Position numbers and translations under genes: made by a program. DNA of 64,000 bases from positions 1 through 64,000 of IMG/VR virus record IMGVR_UViG_3300006947_000007, one strand, 5' to 3'. Below the pieces are notes generated by a model, which ran no database searches, was not told the DNA's origin, and worked only from the letters and a program-made list of their open reading frames with translations. Within the stretch, counting starts at the first letter, position 1. Every line of letters starts with the position of its first letter. This document shows positions 26,620 to 64,000 of the stretch, one piece after another. The stretch is from a virus.

Positions 26620-26987
26620 AACGGTACTTGAATATAATCATCTTCTTCTAAGTCGGGTGGTGTTAGAAGCTCTAATGTTATATGTTGCTCAACTGCTAAA
26701 GCATACTCGTCAGCTAGTTGTTTAAGATGTGGATGTTTTTCTTCCATTTCTACATTACGGTCCAAATCTGCTGGAATACCTAATGCCCTTTCTATTCGCT
26801 GTAGGCGATAATTAACTTGGTCTAGTTCAGTATTGTCTTCTGCTAAATCTGAAAGCCTGGCTTTAAGAAATGGTTCATTAGCAAAGTCTATTCCTGATTC
26901 GGAAGTCATATATTTAATTGAGTTGCTATCTTCATTGTAATAACTATCTATGTCTAGTATATACTGGCCGTGTTCATCTGGGTTCAT
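26616..26987 (-). CDS. Hypothetical protein
   Basis: ATGA-coupled ORF. Confidence 0.6.
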   Translation of the reverse strand: MNPDEHGQYILDIDSYYNEDSNSIKYMTSESGIDFANEPFLKARLSDLAEDNTELDQVNYRLQRIERALGIPADLDRNVEMEEKHPHLKQLADEYALAVEQHITLELLTPPDLEEDDYIQVPF

Positions 26988-38893: not shown

Positions 38894-38906
38894 TAAGTAT
38901 TACCTA

Positions 38907-39641: not shown

Positions 39642-40922
39642 CTATTCAATTAATTCGTGGTAGTGAGGGAAATGATCAGAGAATGATATTTTTCTTCTTT
39701 TCTCTAATATTTCAAATTGCTTCTTTGCTAATTGCTTAGCCTCTGTACTTACCTTACCGCTAACCATAGATTTCATATCCCGTAGAACCGATATGTATCC
39801 TTGTTTATCGTCAAATGTTCCAGACATGTCGATAAAATAATCTATTTGTTCTTGTATTGTGTTAGTGTGGCTAGGGTCTAAACCTAACACAGAAAGCCAC
39901 AACGGATCTTGTACCCGATTATGGTGCATTATTATTTCTTTATCGTAATCAAATTTATTAATTTTCTCATTCAAATATATCAAAAAATCCTTAAAGTATG
40001 GTAGACTTAAACTGTTATGAGCACAGCCAAATCCTAATATTAAATTTTTAGTTTCTTTTGATTGTTTAAAGAACGAGTCTACATTTTGGTTCCATTTATC
40101 AAAGTCCAGGCCCCATCTAATTAGTTCACTCCTCTTACCTAATGCTTCTCCGGAAAGTTGCATTTCATAACGAATGTTTGGGGTTCTCTTCACTAGCTCT
40201 ATAAACTTATCATACTTGTGTTTCGGAAAGTTTAAATTGGTTGTAACAACTAGTACAACTTCTTGCCCGTCGGTTATAGTGTCATTAATGTTAACTATAA
40301 ATTCTTCTATAAATTGATACATGTGATTTGTAAAGAATGGTTCGCCACCTAATAAACTAAAGGTTATAAAATCTTTATGTTTAAGAGTACTGTTCCACCA
40401 TTCATTTAATAATTGAAGTACTTTTTCAAATATAGCATCCTCTGTATCTGGGAATCGTCTACCTGTTTCTTTCTGCCAACGGCTACTCTGACCTTCCCAA
40501 CAATAGGCACATGCCATATTACATTTGTTTGTTAGTTCGAGTTCAACAAACTGAAATAGATCAGATGACAAGTCTAATTTTTTATTAAATAAGGGATTGT
40601 TTTTGCGAATATGCTCAGTTCTTGTACTAGTACCGCTCGCTTCTTCTGATTTCCAGCACCCAGAACAATCTGCGGATTGTATGCCGTTGCTTAATTCATA
40701 TTTTCTTTTTTGTAGCGTTGGGTGATTGAGTAAGAAATCTAAGCCTTTTGCTTCTAATATATCTAAATCAAATGTAACTTCAGCTCGCTGATCTTCTGTT
40801 AATTCTGTCTTACAACACCAGTTGACTGTTTTATTTGGCAGAGATATAATAAGATCGTTCCAAGTTTTGAAACACATTGTATCCGCATGATGTTCAGACT
40901 GCAAATGACTCGCCGCACCCAC
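39642..40922 (-). CDS. Radical SAM protein with N-terminal twitch/SPASM-like Cys cluster (start uncertain)
   Basis: C..WCC..CSGC then CNMACAYC, LGGEPF, TTN. Confidence 0.88.
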   Translation of the reverse strand: MGAASHLQSEHHADTMCFKTWNDLIISLPNKTVNWCCKTELTEDQRAEVTFDLDILEAKGLDFLLNHPTLQKRKYELSNGIQSADCSGCWKSEEASGTSTRTEHIRKNNPLFNKKLDLSSDLFQFVELELTNKCNMACAYCWEGQSSRWQKETGRRFPDTEDAIFEKVLQLLNEWWNSTLKHKDFITFSLLGGEPFFTNHMYQFIEEFIVNINDTITDGQEVVLVVTTNLNFPKHKYDKFIELVKRTPNIRYEMQLSGEALGKRSELIRWGLDFDKWNQNVDSFFKQSKETKNLILGFGCAHNSLSLPYFKDFLIYLNEKINKFDYDKEIIMHHNRVQDPLWLSVLGLDPSHTNTIQEQIDYFIDMSGTFDDKQGYISVLRDMKSMVSGKVSTEAKQLAKKQFEILEKRRKISFSDHFPHYHELIE

Positions 40923-49544: not shown

Positions 49545-49884
49545 GATCTTCGTAGTTTAGAAACTCCTCGTTAGTTTCAATGTCAACATCTTCATAAGGA
49601 ACACATTCAGCAATTTTTTCTGATGACGAAGTGTCAGCAAAGTTAAAGTCTGAGGAATACACTTCTAAAGGAGTATCTGGACTAAAACCTTCTTCCCATA
49701 CTATTTCCTCTATGCCACCTAGTTCGATTACAGCCTTCTCGGCTTCTTCTTTAGAGGTAGCAATTACATCATATGTAACTTGAGCATTATAATACTGCCT
49801 AACTCTAAACTTTTGCTTACCTATGTCCTTGTGTGGATCATCTTTTTTATAAGTTCCGTCTATTATTTTTACTTCTTCAGTCAT
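49495..49884 (-). CDS. Acidic hypothetical protein
   Basis: TAATG-coupled to ligase. Confidence 0.6.
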   Translation of the reverse strand: MTEEVKIIDGTYKKDDPHKDIGKQKFRVRQYYNAQVTYDVIATSKEEAEKAVIELGGIEEIVWEEGFSPDTPLEVYSSDFNFADTSSSEKIAECVPYEDVDIETNEEFLNYEDHEWSKDEFRWKDYDKQ

Positions 49885-51221
49885 TATAGCTTCTCCCCTA
49901 CTTCAAAGCCTCTAAAAGTTTTAAACCTTGGAAACCTTAAACTAAATGTTCCGTCTTGGTTCTGTGTAACAGCGTCGGCTCTAACTTCCGCTACTTGCCC
50001 AATTAATGCTTGTTTGTCTTCCCAAAAACTATCTCTTTGGGCATCACTTAAACCACTACCAACATTAACTTTAATATCTTTGCCATCATCTGTACCTTCA
50101 CAAACTAAAGCACCTAACTTACCTTCAAGTCTACCTGTGCCTTCTTCAGTTGACATAACAGTTAATGATACTTCAATGAAAGGTTTCATCTTTAACCAAC
50201 TATGACTCCTCTTACAAGTATAACCTGCTTCAATGTCTTTAATCATTACGCCTTCGTAACCACCTTCAACTGCTAGTTTGTTAATCTCTGTAAACCTTGC
50301 TTCGCCCTCTGGCGTATCCAAATTAACATCTTCCCACTCTAACCCACTAACATGAGGAAGTGCTTCGCTGTTTGATTCAACCCAGTCTTTAATGCTTTTA
50401 CTTCGCAAGTTTTGGGATATGTTCCACAAACCTTTTTTAAAGTCTGCTAAAGGAATTAGGTCAAACAAGTATAGCACGGCATCTATTGCTCCTGCTGAAC
50501 TCTTTCTATGAACTTGTTTCATTAAATCTTGAAAGTTATCACTCATAACCTCACCATCTAATACCATGTCCTCATCAAAGTCTGCTACTGCTTTAATTTC
50601 CTCACATATGTGATCGAAGTTATTAAACTGTTTGCCATTTCTACTAAACATTTCAACAGTACCACCATTTGCTTTACTTTTAACAATAGTAATAACTCTT
50701 ACTCCGTCTAGCTTAATTTCGATTTGCTTAGTGCCACTCATTTTCTTTTCATGGTTAGCAGAATCATGTGCTAACTGACAAGTAAATGTAGGAATAATAT
50801 ACTGTGGTGCCTTTGCTTTCTTGGCTACATTGTTAATAGTCTTTTCACTTGTACCACATTTAAAGTCTTTAATAAGAATAAGTCTATACCAATCGTTCCA
50901 TTGTTCGATTGTAGCCCTGTTCATAATCTCAATAATTTTGTCCCTAGCATCGTGTCCTGTTAGTTCTCTATTTTGTAAAGGAGTTGCTAGTTCTGTAACA
51001 AAGTCAGTCCAAACAAGGCCTACACCCTCGTTCTCAGTTTTTTCTGGAACTTGTTTAACACCAAATGTAACAAGTTTATCTAGCGTTAGTTTAGCACCAG
51101 CAAAGAATACTTCATTCTCAGAACCAATCTCACCTAGTATAACAGTTTCTTTAAATATTCTACTGTTATCAGATCTAAGTTTTTGTATTACTTGCCAAGA
51201 TTCCATTTTATATAAATTCAT
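49884..51221 (-). CDS. lig: ATP-dependent DNA ligase (start revised)
   Basis: EIKLDGVR (KxDG), FSRNGK, LDGE, FD, EGVMIK, WLKMK, VGSG, LRFPRF. Confidence 0.93.
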   Translation of the reverse strand: MNLYKMESWQVIQKLRSDNSRIFKETVILGEIGSENEVFFAGAKLTLDKLVTFGVKQVPEKTENEGVGLVWTDFVTELATPLQNRELTGHDARDKIIEIMNRATIEQWNDWYRLILIKDFKCGTSEKTINNVAKKAKAPQYIIPTFTCQLAHDSANHEKKMSGTKQIEIKLDGVRVITIVKSKANGGTVEMFSRNGKQFNNFDHICEEIKAVADFDEDMVLDGEVMSDNFQDLMKQVHRKSSAGAIDAVLYLFDLIPLADFKKGLWNISQNLRSKSIKDWVESNSEALPHVSGLEWEDVNLDTPEGEARFTEINKLAVEGGYEGVMIKDIEAGYTCKRSHSWLKMKPFIEVSLTVMSTEEGTGRLEGKLGALVCEGTDDGKDIKVNVGSGLSDAQRDSFWEDKQALIGQVAEVRADAVTQNQDGTFSLRFPRFKTFRGFEVGEKL

Positions 51222-51229
51222 ACAGTCTC

Positions 51230-51568
51230 CTATTTCAAGTAAAGTGGGCCAGTCCAACGAACTGTATAGCCACCGTCTAATATGTTGCCACGTGCCTTGT
51301 TTAAAGCAGGAGCATTCCAACCCGCCGCTTTAAGGATATCACCTTTTTTAAAATGTTTAAAGTCTGCCTTAACAACGAATCCCCAAACAGTATTATCTCT
51401 AATAATTTTGATATACTTACTGCCTTCTGTAACAGTAGTTTGTTCATCAAAGTTGTTAACTTGGTCTAACATATAACCACTTAGTTGTTCCTTGCCGTTT
51501 CGCGTAGCGAACCTAATGTAGTCTTTCTTGATTGCTTTTTTTAAGTGTTTAATTGCTTGTTCTAACAT
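51230..51568 (-). CDS. Conserved early phage protein
   Basis: KYIKI..VWGFV..GDILKAAGWNAPALNKARGNI..WTGPLYL. Confidence 0.7.
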   Translation of the reverse strand: MLEQAIKHLKKAIKKDYIRFATRNGKEQLSGYMLDQVNNFDEQTTVTEGSKYIKIIRDNTVWGFVVKADFKHFKKGDILKAAGWNAPALNKARGNILDGGYTVRWTGPLYLK

Positions 51569-51697: not shown

Positions 51698-51728
51698 TTT
51701 TGGCCTACGTTTTGGCCTACGTTTTGGC
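51698..51728. repeat. Tandem 12-bp repeat TTTTGGCCTACG (about 2.6 copies)
   Basis: Read directly at the island boundary; duplicates the stop codon region of 51717-52403. Confidence 0.75.
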
Positions 51729-52403
51729 GAAATTTGACAGTAATTCGTCGTTTCGGGTGGAGTATAAGTCAATCCAATACTGTAAAGTATCTAGTTGTGC
51801 TTCGCTTATAGTTGTAGATAGTGTAAAGTTAATAAACTTCCTAACTGTTTCTCTGTAACAAAATGTGTATAAGTCATCAGCTTCTATCGTACAAAGAGGT
51901 AAGTTCTTTCGTACTGCTTTGTTATTGGTCGTCCATTGGTCTGGATCATAATCAGGAACATGGCCGTTCTTTATTTGAAATAGTCTATAAAACTTCTTTG
52001 CCATTTCGTCTGTCGAGCCTAGGTGAAATATTATATTAATGTTACTGAAATGGTCCTCTAACCATGTAGGATAAGAATGTATAACACCAAAGTGTATTGC
52101 TCCATCCTTTGCTATTATATCATCAAAGTATTTCAGTCTTTCTTCTGTTGTTTCTATATTGTATTGATCATTCCACGATGTGCCGCCCAACGTTATATTC
52201 TTCTTAGCCGGCCCGGGTGTATTAAATTCAAGTCCATGTGTCCATGTGTCCCATCTATTCTTAAAATCTTGCTTAGTTGAGTGGATTGGTGTCTGTCCCA
52301 GCTTGTATTCTTGTTCGCTCATGATCATATGCTGTAGGAACATTAAAAAGTGAGTTCCTGCGCCTTCTGTTATAATGCTCATTGTTACAGGGGCATTATT
52401 CAT
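51717..52403 (-). CDS. Sulfotransferase/P-loop-fold-like protein, paralog family A
   Basis: GAGTHFL..LQ N-term; Y...N.EL C-term. Confidence 0.5.
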   Translation of the reverse strand: MNNAPVTMSIITEGAGTHFLMFLQHMIMSEQEYKLGQTPIHSTKQDFKNRWDTWTHGLEFNTPGPAKKNITLGGTSWNDQYNIETTEERLKYFDDIIAKDGAIHFGVIHSYPTWLEDHFSNINIIFHLGSTDEMAKKFYRLFQIKNGHVPDYDPDQWTTNNKAVRKNLPLCTIEADDLYTFCYRETVRKFINFTLSTTISEAQLDTLQYWIDLYSTRNDELLSNFAKT

Positions 52404-53082
52404 TTAACAATTCCTTATTAAGTTTTGTATATGTTTTGATCATTTCACATATGGGGTCTAATCGTTCTTGATTGATATCGTTATAAGGTAACGTGTTTAT
52501 TAGAAACTTTTCTATTTCATTGTTATTAATCTCAAAGAAAAACTTCTTATATGATATCATAGTGTTGGGCGGATACAATTCAAATGCTGTTTCGTTTATT
52601 TTAAATATTCTATTAAGGTACTCGTGATCTAATATTTTATTAGGGTTCAAGCATTCTTCGTTGTTTTTTATATGGCCTTTTACTCGAGCTAACTTTTGAA
52701 CAAATTCCTGTGTCTCGATGTCCTCAACATTTACTGCAATTTCGTGAGTAATATGCTTCCATTGTTGTTCTATACCAACCGGGAAAGTATGCTGGAGCAA
52801 CATAGTATTTGTTATAATATTTTTGGACAGATCCCTGTAAAGTTCTTGACTCTTAACAACATCAAATCCAGTGGCTCTGGGCAGAGGTAATGACATCATA
52901 GGCATATCTTGTTGTAAGTGCCACACATTAAATGGTTTCTCTTCGTCCCAGATATTTCCTATGGGGAAGTCGGCTTCTTCTTTATACGGAACAATATCTC
53001 GATAGTATGCCTGTAAGTATCCTAAAAAAGATTTACCAGCACCCGCAGGAACTGTACATATATAAAGATGGTTATCATTCAT
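52396..53082 (-). CDS. Paralog family A protein
   Basis: GAGKSFL..LQ; MIKTYTKLNKELL. Confidence 0.5.
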   Translation of the reverse strand: MNDNHLYICTVPAGAGKSFLGYLQAYYRDIVPYKEEADFPIGNIWDEEKPFNVWHLQQDMPMMSLPLPRATGFDVVKSQELYRDLSKNIITNTMLLQHTFPVGIEQQWKHITHEIAVNVEDIETQEFVQKLARVKGHIKNNEECLNPNKILDHEYLNRIFKINETAFELYPPNTMISYKKFFFEINNNEIEKFLINTLPYNDINQERLDPICEMIKTYTKLNKELLNE

Positions 53083-54055
53083 CCAAAGTGCTCCATTTAT
53101 GTGACGTTAATACTTTGTTGCTCACTAGGTGCCAGTTTTTCATTATTTTAAGATTTGTATCGTGGTATCTTTTTAATAAATCTTGACACGTTGATATCAT
53201 ATTATCAGATGTGTCTGCCCCGGTAGTTGCTTGTAGGAATCGCTTAACAGTATTATAATCTTGATCAATAATCAACTCTGAGTAACTTATCTTAATTTTC
53301 GGCTTCATTCCGTATTTTCTAGCTATACAATATATCTTCCATTCAGTATTACATCGTTCGAGATTAGTTGAAATACTGTGTATAGGGACCGGTGGTGTTT
53401 TGTTACTATTATCCATAAACCTACGAACAGTCTTTCCGCCCAGATCTCCGTTGGCTGCATGTTTCAATGATGCTAAAAAATGGGTCCAAACAAATGTTTT
53501 GATATCCATATCGAGGAAAAAGACACATTCTGTTTCAACAAAAAATGGCAATGTTAATAGATCAGTGTGGACTTGTAGCTCGTGGGTTTCTGTAAAACGC
53601 AATACAAATGATATAAATTTAGACCAGGTCTGCTCCCACGTGGTATGCCTGTTTACTAAGTCCATAACATCCTGTTCTAAGTCTGCTGTTCGTTTTTGTC
53701 CGTGTATTGGATTTTTTGTAAGTTCTTTAAAATTAAGCCCGTAAATATCGTCCCATAAGTTGATTTTTCTATTCTCGGGGCTGATAGCCTCAATTTCGAT
53801 CTCACCTTTTGCTAACTCCTGAAGCACTCCTAAAAAACTGCCACCTGCACCGTATGGAGCAATCGAATAACATAATTTAATATCTCTATGCGGATTTAAT
53901 TCAAATAGTTTGAAGTGATTCTTTGGATGTCGAGTTTGTATCTCATTTCGCAAAGAACTTTCAGTAGCATTCATAAGTTGAGGTAGACCTATAGCACAGA
54001 CATACTTGTCAAAGTCTTGAAGTTGTTCCTGGCATTCTATTATTCTATGTTTCAT
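53075..54055 (-). CDS. Paralog family A protein
   Basis: GAGGSFL..LQ; ISYSEL; YHDTNLKI. Confidence 0.5.
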   Translation of the reverse strand: MKHRIIECQEQLQDFDKYVCAIGLPQLMNATESSLRNEIQTRHPKNHFKLFELNPHRDIKLCYSIAPYGAGGSFLGVLQELAKGEIEIEAISPENRKINLWDDIYGLNFKELTKNPIHGQKRTADLEQDVMDLVNRHTTWEQTWSKFISFVLRFTETHELQVHTDLLTLPFFVETECVFFLDMDIKTFVWTHFLASLKHAANGDLGGKTVRRFMDNSNKTPPVPIHSISTNLERCNTEWKIYCIARKYGMKPKIKISYSELIIDQDYNTVKRFLQATTGADTSDNMISTCQDLLKRYHDTNLKIMKNWHLVSNKVLTSHKWSTLDE

Positions 54056-54440
54056 CTACTGGCTCACTAATTACTCTCCGCCAGCTGAGACCGTTGTAGA
54101 AATATAGATCTTGTGTGTCGGAACAATACATTACCTGGCCAGGTAATGCTGGAAATGGTAAATTGCCAGACCTAGTAGGTTTTAATGCTATATGATTTGT
54201 TACTATACTGTTGGCATCAAATTCGTTGAATACAACAACTTCTCCAGATGCCTTAACTACTAATTTGTTATCGTTATTTTTATCAGCTACAGATAGTATA
54301 GCCAATGACTTAGGATACGTTGGGTCACCTGCCTTAATCCTAAGACCCATTCCTGCGTCATTTATATTATGTATAGTTAAGCCGTAGTCTTCTGTGCTAA
54401 TATCTATTATTGATTCTGGTAAGTCCTTCCTCTCACTCAT
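54045..54440 (-). CDS. Small fibre-like structural protein (start revised)
   Basis: GQVMYCSDTQDLYFYNG.SW motif shared with tail-fibre-like genes. Confidence 0.5.
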   Translation of the reverse strand: MSERKDLPESIIDISTEDYGLTIHNINDAGMGLRIKAGDPTYPKSLAILSVADKNNDNKLVVKASGEVVVFNEFDANSIVTNHIALKPTRSGNLPFPALPGQVMYCSDTQDLYFYNGLSWRRVISEPVDET

Positions 54441-55590
54441 AACTAGTGTCTCCCGGAAACAATGGTAATTTAGTTCCTGGTGCTCGTTTAGGTATCTTAC
54501 TATCTGCTGAACTAACACATGAAGGACTAATACAAGGCATAGGTTTACTAAACAACTTAAAGCCTGTTTCAATGTTTCCTAACGGTACATCCTTGCAACT
54601 GTAACTTCTTTTTACACTACCATCCGGTTCTCTAATAATAATACTACGATACCCTGAACTACATTCCCAGTCGGTGAACTTATTAAAGTTAAAAGCATTA
54701 AATCTTTCTGCTTGATCCATGTACCATTCCTTATGATTACTATCCTTAAACTCTACTTGGAAGTGTTGTGGCACACTCTCCTCACCAAAGTTTTTATATA
54801 TAGGATCAGGTGCTCTCATAAATGTAGGTGTGGGTCTTTCTACATTTATATTTTTAGATTCAGTAAATGCCCGCTGTGGCATTCCGTTGTGTAACCTTTC
54901 AAGCATGTCTTTAGTGTAACCGTCGACAACCTTAGACGCTGTTGGATCTGATTGAGGCTTGAGCGTAACGTTAATACCTCTATTGTGGAAATATAACGAT
55001 TCTTCCCATAGGTCTTCGAACCATTCGGGAACCATAACTTGGTTAATTGTGACTTGGACATCGTGTTCCTGGACGAAGCAAAGTTTATCGGCGAAGTCTT
55101 CTCGTTTCTCTTGTGTGTTAACGTGTTCCCTGTGGTATGAGGCTGTAATACTGGCTCTATGGAACGCTGATACAATTTTGACATATTTTTCAAACCATTT
55201 CATATTTCTCGACATGTTCGTAGTCATGTGTACACTAGTAAAATTAGTGTTGCTTACGTCATCTGCCAAGTGTTTCATTATATCTAAATAGCCAGGATGG
55301 AACGTTGGTTCACCTCCACTTAAACTAAAGTGAAAACTGTTAAATCCACGTTCACGTGCTTGGCGCTTAATCTCATCAACTGTTGTTAAACATAACTCAG
55401 TAGGCCTGAAATCTTTCTTATCACTTCTAGCATACGGCCAACAGTAAGAACATTTGTAGTTACAAAAACGTCCTAGTAACCAACTAACTGAAAACATATC
55501 TCTATACAGCATAGTTCGTTGTCCTACTCTAACTAAATCGTCAAAGGGGACTTTACTAAAATCGTAGTTGCTCCATTTTAAATCATTCAT
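54433..55590 (-). CDS. Radical SAM protein with C-terminal Cys cluster
   Basis: CNYKCSYC, SGGEPT, TTN, ASYH; C..G..C..C....C. Confidence 0.9.
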   Translation of the reverse strand: MNDLKWSNYDFSKVPFDDLVRVGQRTMLYRDMFSVSWLLGRFCNYKCSYCWPYARSDKKDFRPTELCLTTVDEIKRQARERGFNSFHFSLSGGEPTFHPGYLDIMKHLADDVSNTNFTSVHMTTNMSRNMKWFEKYVKIVSAFHRASITASYHREHVNTQEKREDFADKLCFVQEHDVQVTINQVMVPEWFEDLWEESLYFHNRGINVTLKPQSDPTASKVVDGYTKDMLERLHNGMPQRAFTESKNINVERPTPTFMRAPDPIYKNFGEESVPQHFQVEFKDSNHKEWYMDQAERFNAFNFNKFTDWECSSGYRSIIIREPDGSVKRSYSCKDVPLGNIETGFKLFSKPMPCISPSCVSSADSKIPKRAPGTKLPLFPGDTSYE

Positions 55591-56767
55591 TTAATAACTC
55601 CTTTGCCCACGGAAACATATCTCGATACTTAATGGGGTTATTAAAATCCCATAGTTGAACACTCGTATATAGTTCACGGCGTTCTTGGTTAGTAATTTCC
55701 CGTACATCATTCTTTATCCGATGAAGTAGTGTATGGTAACTGTTGCTAACATTTGTGGGGAAAGCAAAGTTGTCTAGTTGTTCTATTAGATTAGTTCGAT
55801 ACTTCATCGGAATTAGTTCCCAATTAAGGCAGGTAGGATAGTCGATATCATTCCATTCGATTTTACAAGTGATATTATCTTCTTTAATCCAGTTGAAAAA
55901 CTCAACGATTCCGAACAAATTTAAATGACTCCAACACGGTGTAATAGAAGTTGTTATTCCGTGCTCTAATAATATATTGTAATTTCTTTTTACTGATTTC
56001 CATCTTACTGGATAGCGTTGATATTCGATCCATTTGTCTACACCATCTATGCTACAGCCGATACTGGCACTATCGAATTGTTTAAGTATATCTAAGACAT
56101 AAGTTTTCACTGTAGTACAGTTTGTTAAGAAGAACGTATGTAAGTCTGTGCGGCCCGCTTTGATTAGTTTTATTAATAGTTCTTCTACTTCTGGCATTAC
56201 AAACGGTTCACCACCAGCAAATTTTATTTCTTTAATATTCTCATTGTTTAAAATAAATTCATATAAGCCTTTAACAGGATCAATATAACCAACACTACTG
56301 TAATATACAGCATTTTCATCCTTAGCAAATTGAATATCTAAAACGCCTGCCTCTGTAGCTGATACTATATTCTTTGCTATTTGGTCACTGTTGCCGGAGT
56401 AACACATCTTACATTGTAAGTTACATTTATTCGAAAGACGCACATCTATTATTTCTAATACAGGAGTATCAAAAGGATCTATTCTGCGTTCTTTATATAA
56501 TTTATTTGATTCTTGCCTTTTAGATATAGATCCACTGTCTTCTAATTTCCAACATGACACACAGCTCGACGGCCTAGTATCTGTTAGAAACTCATGCCGT
56601 ATATTATTTAATCCCTCATCAGTATGGAACCAGTTGTTCGATCCGCTAAGAGGTGTTCCCTTGTAACTATCTGTTTGTATACAGCAAGACTTATATCCGG
56701 GTGTAGTGTCGCCCGAATTATGATCTATATATAGTTCTCTGAACGGGATATAACAAAAGTTTTTCAT
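55583..56767 (-). CDS. Twitch-domain radical SAM protein
   Basis: FC..P, SCC, CVSC; CNLQCKMC, AGGEPF, SIDG. Confidence 0.9.
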   Translation of the reverse strand: MKNFCYIPFRELYIDHNSGDTTPGYKSCCIQTDSYKGTPLSGSNNWFHTDEGLNNIRHEFLTDTRPSSCVSCWKLEDSGSISKRQESNKLYKERRIDPFDTPVLEIIDVRLSNKCNLQCKMCYSGNSDQIAKNIVSATEAGVLDIQFAKDENAVYYSSVGYIDPVKGLYEFILNNENIKEIKFAGGEPFVMPEVEELLIKLIKAGRTDLHTFFLTNCTTVKTYVLDILKQFDSASIGCSIDGVDKWIEYQRYPVRWKSVKRNYNILLEHGITTSITPCWSHLNLFGIVEFFNWIKEDNITCKIEWNDIDYPTCLNWELIPMKYRTNLIEQLDNFAFPTNVSNSYHTLLHRIKNDVREITNQERRELYTSVQLWDFNNPIKYRDMFPWAKELLNE

Positions 56768-57540
56768 AGTGTCCTCATAAACGATATCCTCACGCCACCT
56801 TTCATAATAAAATTACCTGCGGTAGATTCGTGTACTTGCGCGGTGTCGAATACAAGTAACGACCCCGGTGACCATTTAAAATCCCTTTCAATTGTTAGTC
56901 CTTTATGGTATTCTTTATCAGTTATTCCTATCCTGGCCATCTCTTTTTGTTTCATTTTCTCATCACCAATAACAGTAGGTCTGCGATTAACATCGTACAC
57001 ATCCTTAATAGCAGTATAATCTGTTGAGGAGTCGTAGTGCGAAGTAGGCACAGTTGAGCCGTGATCTAATGTTGTGCCTACATCTGCTATACGTTGATCA
57101 TAGAATACTATACGGCAGTTGCTAGTGTCTGGTTGTAAGTATAGTGGGATTAATACACTCTTGTAGGGTGTATTTTGATGTTCCCAAGCACCGCGTTCTG
57201 GCATGTCAGTATGTATACCGTATTGGTGCGGTGTGTGAAAGAAATTACCCTGTACGCTAGTAACAATGTCAAAATCAATATACTGTGATAACTTTTCTTT
57301 TAGGATATTAACTAATTCGTCAAAGTTCCCTGCTGTCATTAGCAATCCACTAGTGTTTCCTAGCATCCACTCATCTGTTTTATTGTACATAAAATCTGTT
57401 AGTGTTTCTAATTCATCTTCTGAAAACATATCTTCATGACATTCGGCTACAGAGAAGTATTTTGTTAATTCATCGGGATATTCGGAACGCCACTTATGAT
57501 CAGCGTGTGCTTTAAGTTCGGTATTATGTCCTATAGTCAT
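56764..57540 (-). CDS. 2OG-Fe(II) oxygenase-like protein
   Basis: IHTD, LIPL, W.PGSLLVFD..QVH. Confidence 0.72.
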   Translation of the reverse strand: MTIGHNTELKAHADHKWRSEYPDELTKYFSVAECHEDMFSEDELETLTDFMYNKTDEWMLGNTSGLLMTAGNFDELVNILKEKLSQYIDFDIVTSVQGNFFHTPHQYGIHTDMPERGAWEHQNTPYKSVLIPLYLQPDTSNCRIVFYDQRIADVGTTLDHGSTVPTSHYDSSTDYTAIKDVYDVNRRPTVIGDEKMKQKEMARIGITDKEYHKGLTIERDFKWSPGSLLVFDTAQVHESTAGNFIMKGGVRISFMRTL

Positions 57541-58583
57541 ACTGCTACCCAGGCCTCTTCTTGCTCTATGTGGTTATTCATTGTCCATGCATTGCCCTTA
57601 CATACATTCCAGCATACTTTATATTCACAACCACTTTTCTTTTCCCATTCCTCCTTAAACTGTTCAAATACACCATGTTGTAATATAAACTGTAGTGTAT
57701 TCTTTTCTGCTAAGTTAAATCCTTTATTATAATGATTAAACAAATAAGGATTATCTGTTTTAAATTGTTCTGGATAACCGATGTGGCTTTTACAATAACG
57801 TTGACTAGTATAACAGCAAGGCCATATTCGTCCTTCACCGTTTAAATAAATTCTACTTAATTCTAAGGATTTACAACCTATGGCTTGATCGTTTGTCACT
57901 ACATCAACTGTGTTTGCTCGTATATCTTCTGCTTGTGCAGTTGTATATTTAACTCCATTAGCACCCGGATGCGAGTTTAATGATTTGTATAATGCAGGTG
58001 GTGGTCTCATGCTCATTCTAGAATCAAATCTAGCAAACCTATAAGACTTTGCTAATTGACTAGCTTCTGTTGTTTGGTGTTTGTTATGCTCAAATATTAG
58101 CCATTTCCATGTTGCCTTGCCGCCTGCTTCAATAAACGTTGTAAAGTTTTGTTTAAGTTTTGTCCAATCTACATTAACTCTGTATATGTGATTAGTATCT
58201 TCTAGTCCGTCTATGCTAAATGTACAGTCAACTCTAGGTATCTTTGCGAGTTTTTGCCAAAACTCATTGCTTCTAAGTCCACCATTAGTATCTATAAACA
58301 CTTTACTAACACCCAAGTCCACCCATGTCTGAATACCTTCTAGTATCCTAGGGTTCATTAACGGATCGCCTAGATTACCGCATAGGTGTATTTCTAATTC
58401 GTTTATATTAGGTATTTGTTTAATTACTTTTGTTACTATGTCAACATCTAGATGTTCTTCAATTAAATTGGGTAATTTATCACTGGTTCCCCAATAATGT
58501 CTACTACAGCCAGGGCATGCCGCATTACAGTATGTAGATAATTCTACTTCTAATTGTTTTATTTTATCTAGTTCAATAAACAT
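57537..58583 (-). CDS. Radical SAM/SPASM protein (paralog of 26984-28279)
   Basis: CNAACPGC, GNLGDP, TNGG, FSIDG..DTNH.YR, FEHNKHQ, WPCC, CWNVC. Confidence 0.9.
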   Translation of the reverse strand: MFIELDKIKQLEVELSTYCNAACPGCSRHYWGTSDKLPNLIEEHLDVDIVTKVIKQIPNINELEIHLCGNLGDPLMNPRILEGIQTWVDLGVSKVFIDTNGGLRSNEFWQKLAKIPRVDCTFSIDGLEDTNHIYRVNVDWTKLKQNFTTFIEAGGKATWKWLIFEHNKHQTTEASQLAKSYRFARFDSRMSMRPPPALYKSLNSHPGANGVKYTTAQAEDIRANTVDVVTNDQAIGCKSLELSRIYLNGEGRIWPCCYTSQRYCKSHIGYPEQFKTDNPYLFNHYNKGFNLAEKNTLQFILQHGVFEQFKEEWEKKSGCEYKVCWNVCKGNAWTMNNHIEQEEAWVAV

Positions 58584-58584
58584 G

Positions 58585-58785
58585 TCATTCTTTGCCCCAT
58601 TCTATTTTATCCCATACTCGTTCATGAATATAATACAAAATAGCCATACCAAATAAAGAAACAACAAACCAACCAGTCTGTTCCCAATTACCTGTTATAA
58701 TATAACTTACTATTGTTAAAAGAACTATAACAATAATTCTCCATGATATTGTTTTAACAATAGATCTTTTTTTAGTGTCCATCAA
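58585..58785 (-). CDS. DUF2061-family small membrane protein
   Basis: RSIVKTISWR..YYIHERVW..I.WG. Confidence 0.8.
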   Translation of the reverse strand: MMDTKKRSIVKTISWRIIVIVLLTIVSYIITGNWEQTGWFVVSLFGMAILYYIHERVWDKIEWGKE

Positions 58786-60085
58786 ACAGTTCCTTATACT
58801 GCGGTGTAACCATTAATATGTTTTGTTTTCTTTCTTGGTCTAAGTACTTTGTAAACTTAATAAATTCAGGCATTTTATCTGAATAGTCTTCAGCGTCCAT
58901 ATAGTTTGTTACACTATCTAATATTTTATTAAACTTTTGTTTAACATTGTCATCTATTGTTGTATCTTTATCTAATTTATCTTTATAATAATTGTAATGT
59001 TCGTGGACATCTTGTTTTAATTCTTTATTTAATAATCTAATATTAGCACGTTTAGGACCGTGAGCTACGTGATGTGTTATAACAGGCTTACTGCTACTTG
59101 AATTAATCTTTTTATATCCTGATTCTTTTAATTTCCACATCATAAATTCAGGTAAATGAAATATATTATATGCTGTAACAGTAAAGGCAATCCAGGCAAC
59201 AACATTCTTAGGTAAATTATCTAACTTTTCTAAGTTTGCTTTTGCCTGTCGCCATTTAACTGGCCAACGTTGGTATTCTATCATCGGCCCCATTCCATCT
59301 ATACTAGCACCGACTCTTATTTGTTTAAATTCTTCCCACATTTTTAATACTCTAGGTGGAAGTGATGTCATATTCGTATTATATTCAATCATTATATTTT
59401 TAGCACACCCCGAATCAATACATCTCTGTAAGAATTCATAATGACGTTCGATCATCATCGGTTCGCCGCCTGCCATATAAACATGTTCAATATAAGGAAT
59501 ATTCTTTTCCATTTGTTCCCAAAATGTTTCTGAATTATGCCAATCATAGTCAGTTGTTTCTAACCTTCCTTTAGCATTACGTTTAAGTTCCACGGTTCCG
59601 TGTGTATCTTCGTACGTTGTTCCTCCGTGGTACCCTAGCCATTGTTCGTACCATGTGTGACTATCAGTTGGGCCACACATCCTACAGGCTAGATTACATA
59701 AGTTTCCGAAACGTAAATCGTAATACTGGTTGCGAACTGTGATGCTACCGTCAGGTGCTGTATCACGAACAGCGGACTCGTAATCATATTCCCAATGCTC
59801 TAATTCGTACAACCTTCGGCTTTGTAATCCTGCTTCTTCTTCAGATTTACAGCGACCGCACTCCTCACTCCAACGACCTGCTAACATATTTTTACGAACT
59901 ATCTTCATTAGGTCAGCGTTCTTGGCATCATCAAAGTTATCACGGCCAGCATTAAAACTGGTACCGTCTGGGTGTCTTACTACGCCCTGATTCTTAGTCA
60001 CATTGGCTTGACAACATATTCTAATGTCTCCATTGTTTCTAACTGCTTGGAAGTTCCAAGGTATCGGGCAAAATGTTTTACTCAT
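58772..60085 (-). CDS. Twitch-domain radical SAM protein
   Basis: FCPIPW, RICC, CGRC; DLRFGNLCNLACRMC, AGGEP, YNTN, SIDG. Confidence 0.92.
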   Translation of the reverse strand: MSKTFCPIPWNFQAVRNNGDIRICCQANVTKNQGVVRHPDGTSFNAGRDNFDDAKNADLMKIVRKNMLAGRWSEECGRCKSEEEAGLQSRRLYELEHWEYDYESAVRDTAPDGSITVRNQYYDLRFGNLCNLACRMCGPTDSHTWYEQWLGYHGGTTYEDTHGTVELKRNAKGRLETTDYDWHNSETFWEQMEKNIPYIEHVYMAGGEPMMIERHYEFLQRCIDSGCAKNIMIEYNTNMTSLPPRVLKMWEEFKQIRVGASIDGMGPMIEYQRWPVKWRQAKANLEKLDNLPKNVVAWIAFTVTAYNIFHLPEFMMWKLKESGYKKINSSSSKPVITHHVAHGPKRANIRLLNKELKQDVHEHYNYYKDKLDKDTTIDDNVKQKFNKILDSVTNYMDAEDYSDKMPEFIKFTKYLDQERKQNILMVTPQYKELFDGH

Positions 60086-60764
60086 GTTTAAGATTTCCTA
60101 GTTCTAATATTTCCCAATTTTTCCTATGATATTTTGCTATCAATGTAGTAATATCTCCTATAGTCACCGGGCTTTCTACTTTAAATGTATCCTCAGTACG
60201 CTCTACTATCTCAGTTATCAAACGAGGATCCAATTCATGAAATAAACTAGTGTAGTCATAAGTGTAATCAGCTTTATAGTGATTCATGTTCTCAGTTTCC
60301 CAAGAATGAATGAGAGTTTGTTCAGCTTCGTGTACACTTCTATTAAATTCGTCTTTCTTTTTATAGTTTGCTAGATTATTTAATTCTATTCTTTGATCAA
60401 CATTATCTAAAATACATACAACACCGTAATGCGGTATGCCTGGAAGACTAGCGTCTAATATGAATGTTCCTTTGTAAGACACATTTAATCTATCTATGAT
60501 TTCTTTCCGAGCTCGATGTTTCTCATACCTATTTCCTAAGTATTTACGCCAAATGCTTTGGCACTCAAGTAATTCTTTATTCCAGTCAGTTCTATCATAC
60601 CAATTAGGATTAAAATGGAATGGCAAGTATATACCGTCAAACAAATTATTAGTATCTATTTGTTTTTCGATGTTTTTTACAGTTTCTTTCCCTTTAATTA
60701 CTGTTTGTAATGCTCCGAGAAAGTTCTTCCCCGCACCGTGTTGTATTATGCTAAATTCTCTCAT
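60078..60764 (-). CDS. Paralog family A protein
   Basis: GAGKNFL..LQ; YHRKNWEIL. Confidence 0.5.
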   Translation of the reverse strand: MREFSIIQHGAGKNFLGALQTVIKGKETVKNIEKQIDTNNLFDGIYLPFHFNPNWYDRTDWNKELLECQSIWRKYLGNRYEKHRARKEIIDRLNVSYKGTFILDASLPGIPHYGVVCILDNVDQRIELNNLANYKKKDEFNRSVHEAEQTLIHSWETENMNHYKADYTYDYTSLFHELDPRLITEIVERTEDTFKVESPVTIGDITTLIAKYHRKNWEILELGNLKHE

Positions 60765-60803
60765 TTTATTATACTTCTATATCTATTATTGTTCCTTGAA
60801 GGG

Positions 60804-61664
60804 TCATCTATAACTCTCCAAATTTATATCTGTTATCATACAGTTTTGATCTATTGTCATTAAGTCCGATAAACCATCAATTTCATATTTCTTATGTATT
60901 TTTGTTGCTAGTTCATATAGTTGGTCATAATTAGAAACAATATCTTTTTTATCAGGTGCTTTTGAGTTGTTATCTTTTAATTGATCATAATGTTGTCCGG
61001 TATGGACTATTACTTCGTCAACCTCTGGTAATTCCTCAGTTAAAGTATCGCATATAGATAAAGAGCCAAATATTTCTTTCGGTGTCCGTCCTACTATGTC
61101 ATCCTCATAAAACAGCAAATCTTGAGCCTTTATATTGTGTGGGTTATTTGCTAAAGTCATATAATTACCTTCTATAACACTCTTACATACTAATTCAAAA
61201 AACTCTGGATCTATATGTATTTTGCTAGTATCATTATACGGCGGCAGCCATTCTAGTTTATGTCTAGCAATTGTGGCGCTCAGTACAGTACTCCATATAT
61301 CACGTCTAGTTAAAACAATATTATGTTGAGCTAAATTCATCGTTACTTTTTTCAAATCATCCATATCTTTGAAGATTTCGTCTTCCATTTCACCCGGGTG
61401 TGTTTTCCAGACAGCGGCATTAGTTTTGCCATTTACAAGTGCTTCCATTTTATTGCAGACTGCCTGCCTAATTTGTTCTGGTGTGTCTAAACCCATCAAC
61501 TCATCATTATTAAAAGAAAATGGTGACCCAGTCCACATGGGGTTATCAGCACATTTAGGACAAGCGTCCATATATAACATAATTATATCATGTAAGTAAT
61601 TGCTACCCGATCTAGGTGTAGCATAAATTTGAACCTTTTTTGGTTTTGTTTGTGCCCATTTCAT
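60804..61664 (-). CDS. Sulfotransferase-family protein (Stf0-like)
   Basis: TPRSGSNYL (5'-PSB loop), KTH, LTRRD..S..LS...A (3'-PB), YED. Confidence 0.75.
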   Translation of the reverse strand: MKWAQTKPKKVQIYATPRSGSNYLHDIIMLYMDACPKCADNPMWTGSPFSFNNDELMGLDTPEQIRQAVCNKMEALVNGKTNAAVWKTHPGEMEDEIFKDMDDLKKVTMNLAQHNIVLTRRDIWSTVLSATIARHKLEWLPPYNDTSKIHIDPEFFELVCKSVIEGNYMTLANNPHNIKAQDLLFYEDDIVGRTPKEIFGSLSICDTLTEELPEVDEVIVHTGQHYDQLKDNNSKAPDKKDIVSNYDQLYELATKIHKKYEIDGLSDLMTIDQNCMITDINLESYR

Positions 61665-62392
61665 GTTAGTATTTCCGTTAATTTAGGTATTATAGCCTCG
61701 GCAAACTTTTTATGACTCTTTGCTCCGGGGTGTTTATCTTTGTAATCATCATTAGCATACGTTGGACTATTTCGTTGTATACCTACGCCAGGTATAAAGA
61801 ACTGCTTATGGCATAGGTGTTGAGCATAATTAAATGCAGAAACATCGTAATGATCTTTACATAGTAGTTCATCGCTTTCAACATAAGCATAAGGAATCTT
61901 TAAATTACCTAGATATTGTTCTGCGATACCTACTTCTTTATATAAATTAATTAATTGTTGTGCTTTATTAATATATAATTTATTGTGGGCGTTAATTAAT
62001 GATTTATCTATTCCATTAGTAGTACTTGCCCATGTACTGTTAGAGAAGTTAGGTTGTTTATCTTCACTCCAGTTTAAATGTATAACACCGTCGTCAGCAA
62101 TATAACTTACGTTTTCTTTATTACTAACCACGTCAGTAAAATATTCATTTCTATTAGCATTTGGCCATTGTATAAACACAAAGTCAGGATAGCCGTGTAC
62201 GGGGTTATCTAAGTATTGTAATAATATTCTATTAACCGTGCTAGGACTTGCTCCTGGTATTGCTAAATTAATTAATTTATTAAATCCTAATTGTTCTTTT
62301 AATTGTATAGTATAACTATTATATCTTATGCCATACTGTATGTGATGACCTAAATGACTATAGCTACAGCCTAGTACTAATAAATTACTCAT
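61661..62392 (-). CDS. SGNH-hydrolase-like protein
   Basis: LVLGCSYS, INLAIPGAS, IQWP...R, D.HPG..SH..FA. Confidence 0.7.
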   Translation of the reverse strand: MSNLLVLGCSYSHLGHHIQYGIRYNSYTIQLKEQLGFNKLINLAIPGASPSTVNRILLQYLDNPVHGYPDFVFIQWPNANRNEYFTDVVSNKENVSYIADDGVIHLNWSEDKQPNFSNSTWASTTNGIDKSLINAHNKLYINKAQQLINLYKEVGIAEQYLGNLKIPYAYVESDELLCKDHYDVSAFNYAQHLCHKQFFIPGVGIQRNSPTYANDDYKDKHPGAKSHKKFAEAIIPKLTEILT

Positions 62393-63650
62393 TTAAAAAT
62401 TCCTTTAATTTAGGAAATACCGTTTCCCAATTCTCTTGTCTTACTACATCTACTACTCGCTCGTGTTTATTAAAGTTCGCTAGTGCTGACGTTGTGATTA
62501 AAGAATCCATTATATGAGCAAGGTCTAACGTTTGTAAACTATTCTTTAATTCTGTTAAAGAATGCCATACTTGATTTTGCCACTTGCTACTTACTCCTTC
62601 ATCAGCAAAATTAAATGAGTTAAAATCCTCATCAATCAATTCTAATAACCTAGTCTTCTGCTTATTATTTAAGCAATATACACTTAGGTGTGACGGTTCG
62701 CTTAATCGTGCTGTATTAAGAAAGAATGACTCTTTATCATTTAATATGCTTTTATCTATATACATAGTACACCAATCTATAAACTCTCTATAGTATAACA
62801 CATTATAGAGGCTTTGTGTGTGCGATACGCCAATATATATGTTTTTATTTTCGTTATGTAGTTTACAGTACCAAGCAACAGCTTCTTCTACCTTACTCCA
62901 ATTACTCTTCTTACGCATAAACTCGCCACGTTTGCCTATGCCATCTAAGGACATATTAAGGAATACTGTATTAAACTTATTAAAGTTTTTAATATATTTG
63001 TTTTTAGGAATGAATGTAGCATTAGTAAAGATGTCTAATGTAATGTTCTTAGCAAAACCCCAATCAACTAAGCGTTGTAGGAACTCTGCTAGGTATTCAC
63101 TAAGGAATGGTTCACCACCTGTTACTTTAACTTCATTTAAGTATTTACAGTCGTCCTTAGATAAGTTAAGCATTGTGTCTATTGTCTTAGGTATTGCCTT
63201 ATCCTGTTCCCAGGCTTCATTGTTACCATAAAACCATTTAACCAAATGATCCGATGCTTCTAAGTCTTCATCCCAACTTGTACTTAATACTGGGTCACAT
63301 ATACGACATTTAAGGTTACAGTAGCGTCCTGTTGTTATTTCTAAGTAAGTCAACACTCCTTTTATCTCTGGAGAGTTCGGCTTAACACTACGATTAAACT
63401 TATCATATGGTAATAGACTGCTTGTTCGCATACTAGTATTACTAGAGTCTTCTTCTACTTTACAGCGTAAACAACCATTATCCCATATACCATTAGCCAT
63501 GTTATCTCTAGGCGTACTATATAACTCTTTGAATTCAATAGGATTATCTACGTATTCACTATTGCCTGTGTAACGACAACAAGGCTTAACACTACCGTTA
63601 GGTTCTATCATCATTCCATGCTCTAAATACTTACATACTATCGCGGTCAT
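62385..63650 (-). CDS. Twitch-domain radical SAM protein
   Basis: KPCC, CLRC; CNLKCRIC, TGGEPF, FTN, SLDG. Confidence 0.92.
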   Translation of the reverse strand: MTAIVCKYLEHGMMIEPNGSVKPCCRYTGNSEYVDNPIEFKELYSTPRDNMANGIWDNGCLRCKVEEDSSNTSMRTSSLLPYDKFNRSVKPNSPEIKGVLTYLEITTGRYCNLKCRICDPVLSTSWDEDLEASDHLVKWFYGNNEAWEQDKAIPKTIDTMLNLSKDDCKYLNEVKVTGGEPFLSEYLAEFLQRLVDWGFAKNITLDIFTNATFIPKNKYIKNFNKFNTVFLNMSLDGIGKRGEFMRKKSNWSKVEEAVAWYCKLHNENKNIYIGVSHTQSLYNVLYYREFIDWCTMYIDKSILNDKESFFLNTARLSEPSHLSVYCLNNKQKTRLLELIDEDFNSFNFADEGVSSKWQNQVWHSLTELKNSLQTLDLAHIMDSLITTSALANFNKHERVVDVVRQENWETVFPKLKEFLNE

Positions 63651-64000
63651 GCTATTAATTCCTTATTAACTTGTGTATATGTCTTAATCATTTCGCATAT
63701 AGTCTCTAGTTTATCGTTATTAAATTCTTTAATATCTATTGTACTTGTTAAAAACTTCTTTATTTCATCTTTATCTATATCAATAAAGATCTTTTTATAG
63801 TCAATATTAGTTAAAGGACTTGCTAATTGTATATTTTTATAAACATCTTCTGCTTTATCTTTTATTTTATTCTTGTTTCTTTCCATCCATAATGGAGATT
63901 TAGCACTTTTTAATTGAGAAGCATACTTAATTGTATCTAAATCGCCTGTAACTGCTAGTGTATGCTCTACATATTTGAACATTAATCGCAAGTCTATAGC
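63647..64000 (-). CDS. Paralog family A protein, 5'-truncated by window edge
   Basis: ICEMIKTYTQVNKELI nearly identical to C-terminus of 52396-53082. Confidence 0.55.
   Translation of the reverse strand, partial: AIDLRLMFKYVEHTLAVTGDLDTIKYASQLKSAKSPLWMERNKNKIKDKAEDVYKNIQLASPLTNIDYKKIFIDIDKDEIKKFLTSTIDIKEFNNDKLETICEMIKTYTQVNKELIA

Follow-up and report, generated by a model that had tools for sequence, protein, structure and literature searches.

The DNA of IMG/VR virus record IMGVR_UViG_3300006947_000007 raises the question of what a phage would do with a long array of radical S-adenosylmethionine (SAM) genes, interleaved with genes for a sulfotransferase, further predicted tailoring enzymes and five members of a protein family characterised by the motif GAGxxFLxxLQ (GAG family). 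The record is an 82,405-base contig, and its positions 1-64000 form the window, the whole 64,000-nucleotide stretch in which the array was first noticed and interpreted as a dedicated pathway decorating the virion, the host surface or the phage DNA. The array, called the island below, extends from position 51717 to contig position 66433 (~15 kb) and comprises 19 genes, all on the minus strand; transcription flips to the plus strand after position 66433. The reading favoured here, with a probability of roughly 45%, is that the island encodes a co-transcribed multi-enzyme pathway that tailors a sugar- or nucleoside-like molecule in successive steps, sulfation among them. A substrate of this kind is suggested by the gene company that the radical SAM enzymes keep in bacteria, and by a carbohydrate sulfotransferase being the nearest fold of the island sulfotransferase.

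Organisation of the island and its relatives in other phages

In the direction of transcription, the named genes are NTwi1, the gene of a 75-amino-acid (75-aa) protein, GAG1, NTwi2, an SGNH-like gene, the sulfotransferase gene, GAG2, NTwi3, a DUF2061 gene, rSAM_B, a 2-oxoglutarate (2OG) oxygenase-like gene, NTwi4, rSAM_C, small131, GAG3, GAG4 and GAG5 (Table 1). The original prediction had described a tightly coupled run of genes leaving the window, and both features are confirmed: 13 of the 15 junctions between GAG1 and GAG5 overlap, by 4-14 nt, and the rest of GAG1, the 75-aa gene and a sixth radical SAM gene lie beyond the window edge. These overlaps support the island genes being one coupled operon. 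Almost all of the genes listed originally are present where they had been placed, on the minus strand, so that the observation holds overall for an island that is larger than described.

A sigma-70-like promoter, TTGACA-17-TATAGT with the TG of an extended -10 element (11/12), is located 29 nt upstream of the 75-aa gene at L002:2551-2579 (-); L002 is a second numbering of the contig beyond the window, in which L002:2146-2226 equals contig 64551-64631. Another sigma-70-like promoter (51632-51604), found 3' of GAG5, serves the next gene. In the opposite orientation, two perfect 12/12 promoters, at L002:4022-4050 (+) and L002:4128-4156 (+), head the divergent plus-strand genes. The promoters at the island head and at the divergent genes suggest early transcription by the host polymerase. 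Intrinsic terminators were looked for at both island ends and none was found. A short hydrophobic open reading frame (ORF) with a GGGAG ribosome site is situated in the 261 nt that separate the 75-aa gene from GAG1, and just downstream of this ORF the sequence TATGTGCCGC occurs twice upstream of GAG1; a search of the contig led to the rejection of TATGTGCCGC as a contig-wide motif.

Contigs from metatranscriptome libraries of three studies are 100% identical to NTwi3, rSAM_B, the 2OG-like gene, GAG1 and the 75-aa gene, and RNA-library contigs tile the gap between the latter two. These contigs are consistent with transcription of the island; they span parts of it only and neither rank its genes nor prove their transcription, and the uncovered parts are uninformative.

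The same island, with the same gene order, was found beside the DNA ligase gene in two IMG/VR contigs and in more than 10 metagenome contigs. Co-occurrence across relatives was one of the points on which the original prediction had itself proposed to stand or fall, and the genes do recur in the same order in the related phage contigs. Every related version contains a core of seven genes, namely NTwi1, the 75-aa gene, GAG2, NTwi3, rSAM_B, rSAM_C and GAG3, while optional cassettes consist of GAG1; NTwi2 with the SGNH-like gene; the sulfotransferase gene; the 2OG-like gene with NTwi4; small131; and GAG4 and GAG5. In related phages the identities are 77-92% for NTwi3, 87-92% for rSAM_C and 60-91% for the DNA ligase; the higher conservation of NTwi3 and rSAM_C than of the ligase argues for strong constraint on both enzymes.

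In searches of phage databases, the island gave no match by megablast, and tblastn searches with GAG1, rSAM_C and small131 likewise returned none; tblastn of NTwi3 against 50,697 phage records returned four only. Cultured Vibrio phage K566 (OZ196521.1; 255 kb) has a cluster of four N-terminal-twitch-like radical SAM genes at 161.5-168.3 kb, near PagP-like and NAMPT genes. GAG and sulfotransferase profiles found nothing convincing in K566, the sub-threshold match of the GAG profile (E 0.0012) falling on a radical SAM ORF.

The phage origin of the DNA, assumed in the original prediction, is borne out by the IMG/VR record itself and by the genes for a CCA-adding enzyme, a ClpA-like ATPase and an ATP-dependent DNA ligase, the ATPase being ~42% identical to its counterparts in PA5oct-type and other jumbo phages. 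Completeness of the record was estimated at ~23% by CheckV, which is compatible with a jumbo phage. The GC content is 32-38% throughout, with no shift at the island. Contamination by host DNA was considered and rejected, given the phage genes on either side of the island and the synteny in other phage contigs.

Radical SAM enzymes and their bacterial counterparts

The six radical SAM genes of the island all encode the CX3CX2C motif and represent three designs: N-terminal twitch (NTwi1 to NTwi4), type B (rSAM_B) and type C (rSAM_C). The five genes originally reported in the window are thus real, with the motif in each. The contig carries ten radical SAM ORFs in total, the island being part of a larger set. 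Pfam model PF04055 scores above its gathering cut-off of 29.5 bits in five of the six (four of the five in the window); rSAM_B reaches 25.6 bits, yet matches phrog_21308 at 4e-24. Four island genes and two or three more on the contig match NF033640 (N_Twi_rSAM; cut-off 170 bits) at 230-374 bits and share with that family a Cys-rich twitch domain preceding the CX3CX2C core. At 51 and 40 bits, rSAM_B and rSAM_C fall below the cut-off and neither is a member.

The original claim that all these enzymes carry auxiliary Cys clusters is upheld by conservation of the Cys residues across homologs. In the N-terminal-twitch type, C6, C24, C25, C76 and C79 precede the core residues C130, C134 and C137 and are kept in 84-100% of 111 homologs. 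For type B, C237, C256, C257, C324 and C328 are kept in 87-100% of homologs, and for type C the residues C310, C332, C353 and C358 in ~75%. A comparison of rSAM_C with PDB sequences gave no match. NF033640 is a catalogue entry without a function, and a full-text literature search for the family name found no paper assigning a function, substrate or reaction; in the phage its members are embedded among phage-only GAG and sulfotransferase genes.

Searching 185,579 species genomes with the N_Twi alignment revealed 199 relatives, overwhelmingly in Bdellovibrionota; such genes were also found in metagenome-assembled genomes of a Rickettsiales, a Parcubacteria and a Crocinitomicaceae member. None of 14 well-known control genomes has an N_Twi gene above the cut-off. 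The bacterial comparison set consists of 79 loci; 212 N_Twi ORFs are arranged in arrays in 77 loci, with type B present in 27 loci and type C in 30, the designs standing side by side. Five such genomes contain ~8-15 N_Twi genes each, in superloci of 30-40 kb. Identity to the bacterial counterparts is up to 51% for NTwi3 and 64-76% for rSAM_C.

Neighbours of the bacterial arrays include family 2 glycosyltransferase (GT2) genes in 12 loci, B12-radical SAM genes in 9, carbamoyltransferase genes in 6 and Asp/Asn-hydroxylase-like genes in 5, together with QueC-like PP-loop, short-chain-dehydrogenase-like and amidinotransferase-like genes. Arrays such as that of Bdellovibrio sp. HCB2-146 contain the same three radical SAM designs as the phage island and share with it 2OG-like and SGNH-like genes; according to hhalign, the phage 2OG-like protein matches bacterial array family 30 with a probability of 100%, and the SGNH-like protein matches family 34 weakly, at 55%. 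The bacterial arrays differ in adding B12-radical SAM, GT2, carbamoyltransferase, QueC-like and amidinotransferase-like genes, and in having no GAG, Stf0-like or 75-aa gene: GAG and sulfotransferase profiles matched none of the ORFs of the 79 loci, and no homolog of the 75-aa protein was found there. These arrays are likewise uncharacterised, and a full-text search for Bdellovibrio and radical SAM found no functional study.

Sulfotransferase, GAG family and accessory genes

The protein encoded at 60804-61664 was originally called a canonical sulfotransferase on account of its PRSGS motif. Its AlphaFold2 (AF2) model (pLDDT 76), built from only six sequences, has as its best fold match Stf0, the trehalose 2-sulfotransferase of Mycobacterium (1TEX). 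In VIA-align, Stf0 (1tex) is matched with Z 11.4 and a root-mean-square deviation of 4.0 over 192 residues; sulfotransferases take all of ranks 1-17, and no kinase exceeds 8.3. Foldseek also returned 1tex, with a probability of 0.98. The motif ATPRSGSNYLH is found in all five full-length members, and K87, T88, H89, P90, R120 and S129 are invariant. Judged by position and by the general features of the family, PRSGS, KTHP and R120...S129 are presumably the 5'-phosphosulfate-binding (5'-PSB) loop, the catalytic His and the 3'-phosphate-binding (3'-PB) motif, respectively. On this modelled fold, the protein is accepted as a predicted sulfotransferase; the word canonical does not fit it, since no sulfotransferase model matched at E <= 1 in Pfam, none did in NCBIfam or PHROGs, and single-sequence and profile searches of the PDB were empty. 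Its homologs make up only five clusters among 5.8 billion proteins.

Sulfate supply was to be checked, according to the original prediction, by a search for adenosine 5'-phosphosulfate (APS) kinase or 3'-phosphoadenosine 5'-phosphosulfate (PAPS) synthase genes, and an APS-kinase-like gene is indeed present on the contig, 12 kb away. The P-loop protein that it encodes scores 33.8 bits with PF01583 (cut-off 21.1), covering profile positions 4-91 of 152 only, and matches the APS kinases 2yvu (E 3.6e-5) and 2gks (8e-4) in the PDB and phrog_10255 ('kinase') at 2e-32; its activity on APS is predicted. Around this gene, three QueC-like PP-loop paralogs are interleaved with the APS-kinase-like protein and a 182-aa ORF (L002:12546-15704, contig 74951-78109, minus strand). 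Beyond this block a plus-strand gene encodes a Gly_rich_2 protein, followed by two further N-terminal-twitch radical SAM genes up to the contig end.

The five-member GAG paralog family was recovered unchanged: a jackhmmer search of every ORF on the 82-kb contig gives exactly the five members originally listed, all in the island. Among 5.8 billion proteins there are 25 matching clusters, from marine metagenomes or viruses only; none of these clusters has a Pfam domain, and GAG has no PHROG match. Judged from its sequences, GAG is a new, unannotated protein family with a clear signature of conserved residues. Across 27 aligned members, G32, A33, G34, F37, Q42, D70, L176, K180, T233, Y254 and N258 are invariant, and the presence of seven invariant polar residues speaks for a role in ligand binding or catalysis. 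In a metagenomic protein of 551 aa (P0003), two GAG domains are naturally fused in tandem, which suggests that GAG proteins are able to act as dimers or pairs.

In the AF2 model obtained from GAG1 (pLDDT 72, pTM 0.74), the GAG loop follows the first strand and precedes the first helix, the position of a P-loop. With Foldseek the best matches of the model are sulfotransferases (E 0.03), as are the best full-length matches, and the named Atlas clusters closest to the family are four families of viral sulfotransferases (score 0.90). In VIA-align, Sult2a8 (Z 6.3) is level with UMP kinase (Z 6.3), so that nucleoside and deoxynucleoside monophosphate (NMP/dNMP) kinases tie with sulfotransferases. 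The model thus lends modest support to a sulfotransferase- or P-loop-kinase-like fold; the fold proposed originally for this family receives the weak matches just given, and shares them with the NMP kinases. The loop reads GAG[GKT]xF, without an invariant Lys, Ser or Thr, and the Walker A motif GxxxxGK[ST] occurs in none of the 27 aligned members. GAG shares the fold of Stf0 loosely and lacks the Stf0 motifs. Homology of GAG to the 60804-61664 family is not claimed, the hhalign probability being 1%.

In a maximum-likelihood tree, a GAG2 clade of 15 rows (support 99/97), a GAG1+GAG4 clade (99/99) and a GAG3 clade (100/99) are each common to several phages. The sequences thus indicate that the GAG paralogs are old and specialised, and a recent expansion was rejected because the deep clades are common to several phages. 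The original suggestion that paralog expansion generates combinatorial diversity is therefore not borne out; the GAG clades are old and orthologous, and the phages differ by gain and loss of whole cassettes.

The accessory enzymes were assigned with varying success. The proposed 2OG-Fe(II) oxygenase has no Pfam, NCBIfam, PHROG or PDB match, by single sequence or profile. What sustains the call is a predicted metal site, an HxD...H triad with a basic residue: among 25 sequences H110, D112, H237 and K247 do not vary and R251 hardly does, and 26 of the 30 named Atlas neighbours carry DUF6445 or 2OG-FeII_Oxy_3 (score 0.95). The SGNH assignment is tentative and comes from motifs, with no Pfam, NCBIfam, PHROG or PDB match beyond a weak one (E 0.42) to the xylan esterase AXE2C at the C-terminal block. 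In its alignment G8, S10 and R81 do not vary, and C9, P222 and H227 are almost constant; G-C-S fits block I, and the C-terminal block resembles block V with one residue fewer between Asp and His.

The DUF2061 protein was correctly recognised and covers the full-length PF09834 profile. The Caulobacter DUF2061 gene CC_0155 appears with 13.07- and 5.99-fold values among iron-responsive, Fur-regulated genes (PMC3751524), and the placement of the phage gene between two Fe-S enzymes hints, by analogy, at a link to iron supply. The small fibre-like gene of the original list is small131, whose C-terminal motif of the tail-fibre type, P..P..G..Y....L.FYNG.W, is common to two gp9/10-like proteins at 38279-39575. 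The two latter proteins, encoded on the minus strand immediately 3' of the radical SAM gene at 39642-40922, are tail-fibre- or baseplate-like with weak N-terminal matches to T4 gp9/10, and end in P..P..G..YY...T..F.GY.NG.W. Evenly conserved along its length, with an aromatic-rich C-terminal third and a conserved AYG[ML]EFT motif, the 75-aa protein resembles a small beta protein that folds. For the neighbouring DNA ligase gene, an internal ATG (MNLYKMESW...) is a likelier start than the listed TTG.

Table 1. Genes of the island and other features discussed in the text, in contig coordinates
Feature	Position	Strand	Length (aa)	Properties
NTwi1	65231-66433	-		radical SAM, N-terminal twitch; NF033640 237.2 bits
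75-aa gene	64700-64927	-	75	own strong promoter and Shine-Dalgarno sequence; phage-only
Hydrophobic ORF MNNIVKAVMITVAVIVVYVISFDLLS	64551-64631 (L002:2146-2226)	-	26	in the gap between the 75-aa gene and GAG1
GAG1	63647-64411 (ATG) or to 64438 (GTG)	-		C-terminal part (63647-64000) inside the window; 98% identical ortholog in L086
NTwi2	62385-63650	-	421	NF033640 244.9 bits; PF04055 38.5 bits; orthologs 67-80% identical
SGNH-like	61661-62392	-	243	block I GCSYS; C-terminal D-x-H-P-G-x-x-S-H
Stf0-like sulfotransferase	60804-61664	-	286	ATPRSGSNYLH, WKTHP, LTRRD...S
GAG2	60078-60764	-	228	directly upstream of NTwi3, 8-nt overlap
NTwi3	58772-60085	-	437	NF033640 374.0 bits
DUF2061 small membrane protein	58585-58785	-	66	PF09834 40.5 bits (cut-off 23.1)
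rSAM_B	57537-58583	-	348	CX3CX2C at residue 19; C-terminal SPASM-like Cys cluster; 51-77% identical in related phages
2OG-Fe(II)-oxygenase-like	56764-57540	-	258	
NTwi4	55583-56767	-	394	NF033640 229.8 bits
rSAM_C	54433-55590	-	385	PF04055 49.9 bits; C-terminal twitch-like four-Cys motif; most conserved island gene
small131	54045-54440	-	131	76% identical in L004; phrog_17342 E 4e-4
GAG3	53075-54055	-	326	N-terminal extension
GAG4	52396-53082	-	228	30% identical to GAG1, E 2e-28
GAG5	51717-52403	-	228	most divergent member; last operon gene
DNA ligase	49884-51320	-		listed TTG start overlaps upstream DUF7717 gene by 91 nt
NTwi0	39642-40922	-		N-terminal-twitch paralog outside the island, upstream of tail-fibre-like genes
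Second type-B radical SAM	26984-28279	-		outside the island; found with jackhmmer; phrog_21308 at 4e-17
APS-kinase-like P-loop protein	75743-76279	-		

Possible products of the proposed pathway

In the pathway favoured here, the radical SAM enzymes would carry out successive C-H activations on a sugar- or nucleoside-like scaffold, with oxidation, epimerisation, dehydration, methylation or C-C bond formation as possible outcomes. The 2OG enzyme would hydroxylate the scaffold, the SGNH-like enzyme may add or remove an acyl group, and the Stf0-like enzyme would transfer sulfate from PAPS, aided by the phage APS-kinase-like protein. The five GAG proteins may be phage-specific partners for group transfer or for holding the substrate, with the GAG loop in the place of a phosphate-binding loop; each would have its own old specificity, and at least GAG2 would work with the translationally coupled radical SAM gene NTwi3. 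The end product would probably be a surface glycan with decorations, or else a small metabolite synthesised in the course of infection.

Such a scheme has its closest characterised parallels in BtrN, AprD4 and BlsE, enzymes of sugar and nucleoside antibiotic pathways, which share the auxiliary-cluster design (BlsE is a weak PDB profile match). The gene company also resembles that of pathways of this type, with genes for amidino-, carbamoyl- and sulfo-transfer, 2OG enzymes and short-chain dehydrogenases. In contrast, only the common core is similar in sequence (E 1e-3 to 1e-7), the auxiliary domain lies at the N-terminus in place of the C-terminus, and no scaffold-forming enzyme was found on the 82 kb.

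Several other observations weigh against the proposed pathway. The PDB profile matches of N_Twi concern the generic SPASM/twitch core only (peptide maturases, GDGT-MAS and BlsE), and no protein of NF033640, of types B and C or of the GAG family has had its function tested. The match of GAG to known folds is weak, on a par with NMP kinases, and GAG proteins have neither the Lys of the 5'-PSB loop nor the Arg/Ser of the 3'-PB motif. GT2 neighbours occur in just 12 of the 79 bacterial loci. The RNA evidence consists of assembled contigs, for which carry-over of DNA is possible. Finally, no GT1, GT2, nucleoside diphosphate (NDP)-sugar epimerase or dehydratase, or other scaffold-building gene was found in the 82 kb, and a search of the contig for the tRNA-guanine transglycosylase (TGT)/DpdA family was also negative; as the contig represents ~23% of the genome, these missing genes do not show that the phage lacks them. 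The NDP-sugar genes that the original prediction would have looked for thus did not appear, the contig having no NDP-sugar epimerase, and its choice of virion glycan, host surface or DNA as the target is not borne out by these 82 kb. As a whole, that interpretation is supported for the operon, the co-occurrence, the sulfotransferase fold, the GAG fold (weakly) and the APS-kinase-like gene; combinatorial diversity does not fit, and the target lacks support.

Modification of a protein or peptide, as in the maturation of virion proteins or of ribosomally synthesised and post-translationally modified peptides (RiPPs), is an unlikely alternative, in which the 75-aa protein or the fibre-motif protein small131 would be crosslinked, epimerised or oxidised by the SPASM/twitch radical SAM enzymes and then sulfated by the sulfotransferase-fold proteins, as by tyrosylprotein sulfotransferases (TPST). 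The presence of the 75-aa gene in all island versions, near the island head and with its own strong promoter and Shine-Dalgarno sequence, would suit a dedicated substrate, as would its aromatic-rich C-terminal third with the AYG[ML]EFT motif and its restriction, like that of GAG, to phages. Most characterised SPASM/twitch enzymes modify peptides, the weak NCBIfam and PDB matches are to such maturases, and the fold matches of the GAG model and of the 60804-61664 model each include TPST structures. Even conservation and the look of a small folded beta protein, with no leader/core pattern, speak against a precursor peptide; the triad of radical SAM designs exists in bacterial arrays that have no 75-aa homolog; TPST scores below Stf0 and the cytosolic sulfotransferases; and the island has no RiPP recognition element, protease or exporter.

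Nucleic-acid hypermodification is considered decidedly unlikely. Here the island, together with the QueC-like and kinase block, would make a modified base or nucleotide in phage DNA or tRNA that counters host nucleases, and the P-loop-like GAG proteins would act as the kinase does in thymidine hypermodification. Known thymidine and 7-deazaguanine pathways include radical SAM and P-loop kinase genes. On the contig, the island abuts the DNA ligase gene in a region of replication and nucleotide metabolism, a P-loop kinase and three QueC-like PP-loop paralogs are found at a distance of 9-12 kb, and the NMP/dNMP kinases are level with sulfotransferases as GAG fold matches. Opposed to this are the lack of TGT/DpdA on the contig, radical SAM enzymes that are not QueE-like outside the common core, GAG loops without the Walker A GK[ST], and bacterial arrays that lie among GT2 and carbamoyltransferase genes; moreover, the 60804 protein is a sulfotransferase by its modelled fold, and sulfated bases are not known.

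That there is no single pathway at all, the island being a hypervariable 'parking lot' of independent auxiliary genes that each act on a different host molecule, is very improbable, for the gain and loss of cassettes among related phages, the further radical SAM paralogs dispersed on the contig and published accounts (PMC2853527, PMC7029224) that treat radical SAM cassettes as modules that vary and may be non-essential are set against a seven-gene core in fixed order in every version, translational coupling of the genes, and three radical SAM designs that travel together in bacteria too.

A bolder proposal, considered unlikely, concerns the role of GAG. The family may be a phage-only branch of the sulfotransferase/P-loop fold in which the PAPS-binding residues have given way to the Gly-Ala-Gly loop, and its members may be obligate partners of N-terminal-twitch enzymes; together with the Stf0-like enzyme and APS kinase they would then make a sulfated, radically rearranged molecule new to viruses.

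Arrays of radical SAM genes have been reported in large phages since 2010, with no substrate assigned in the reports found. Campylobacter phages CP220 and CPt10 have radical SAM cassettes of unassigned function (Timms et al. 2010, PMC2853527), and in pelagimyophages radical SAM genes of equally unassigned function belong to the host recognition cluster (Zaragoza-Solas et al. 2020, PMC7029224). Like the island, these are exchangeable phage modules with many radical SAM genes; they differ in location, the island lying beside the DNA ligase gene and not between VrlC and gp14, and neither report describes a GAG family or sulfotransferases. CP220 and CPt10 are not among the records returned by tblastn of NTwi3, and a full-text search for jumbo phages and sulfotransferases found no functional study. 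The original statement that no characterised phage pathway has this make-up therefore holds, with the addition that uncharacterised phage radical SAM arrays had been published.

What is new here is the fold evidence for the sulfotransferase and GAG, the APS-kinase-like gene, the map of core and cassettes, and the age of the GAG paralogs. Sixteen studies have marine metagenomes with DNA nearly identical to that of this uncultured phage, at 0.94-0.98 of sampled words in those where the genome might be recovered, which suggests that the island product is made widely in the sea. With an Stf0-like enzyme whose cofactor motifs are intact and an APS-kinase-like gene on the same contig, part of the chemistry may be guessed with some confidence, and these genes together with the seven-gene core make the system testable. 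If the proposed partnership of GAG proteins with N-terminal-twitch enzymes is true, it would open a first way to the function of the NF033640 arrays in phages and predatory bacteria.

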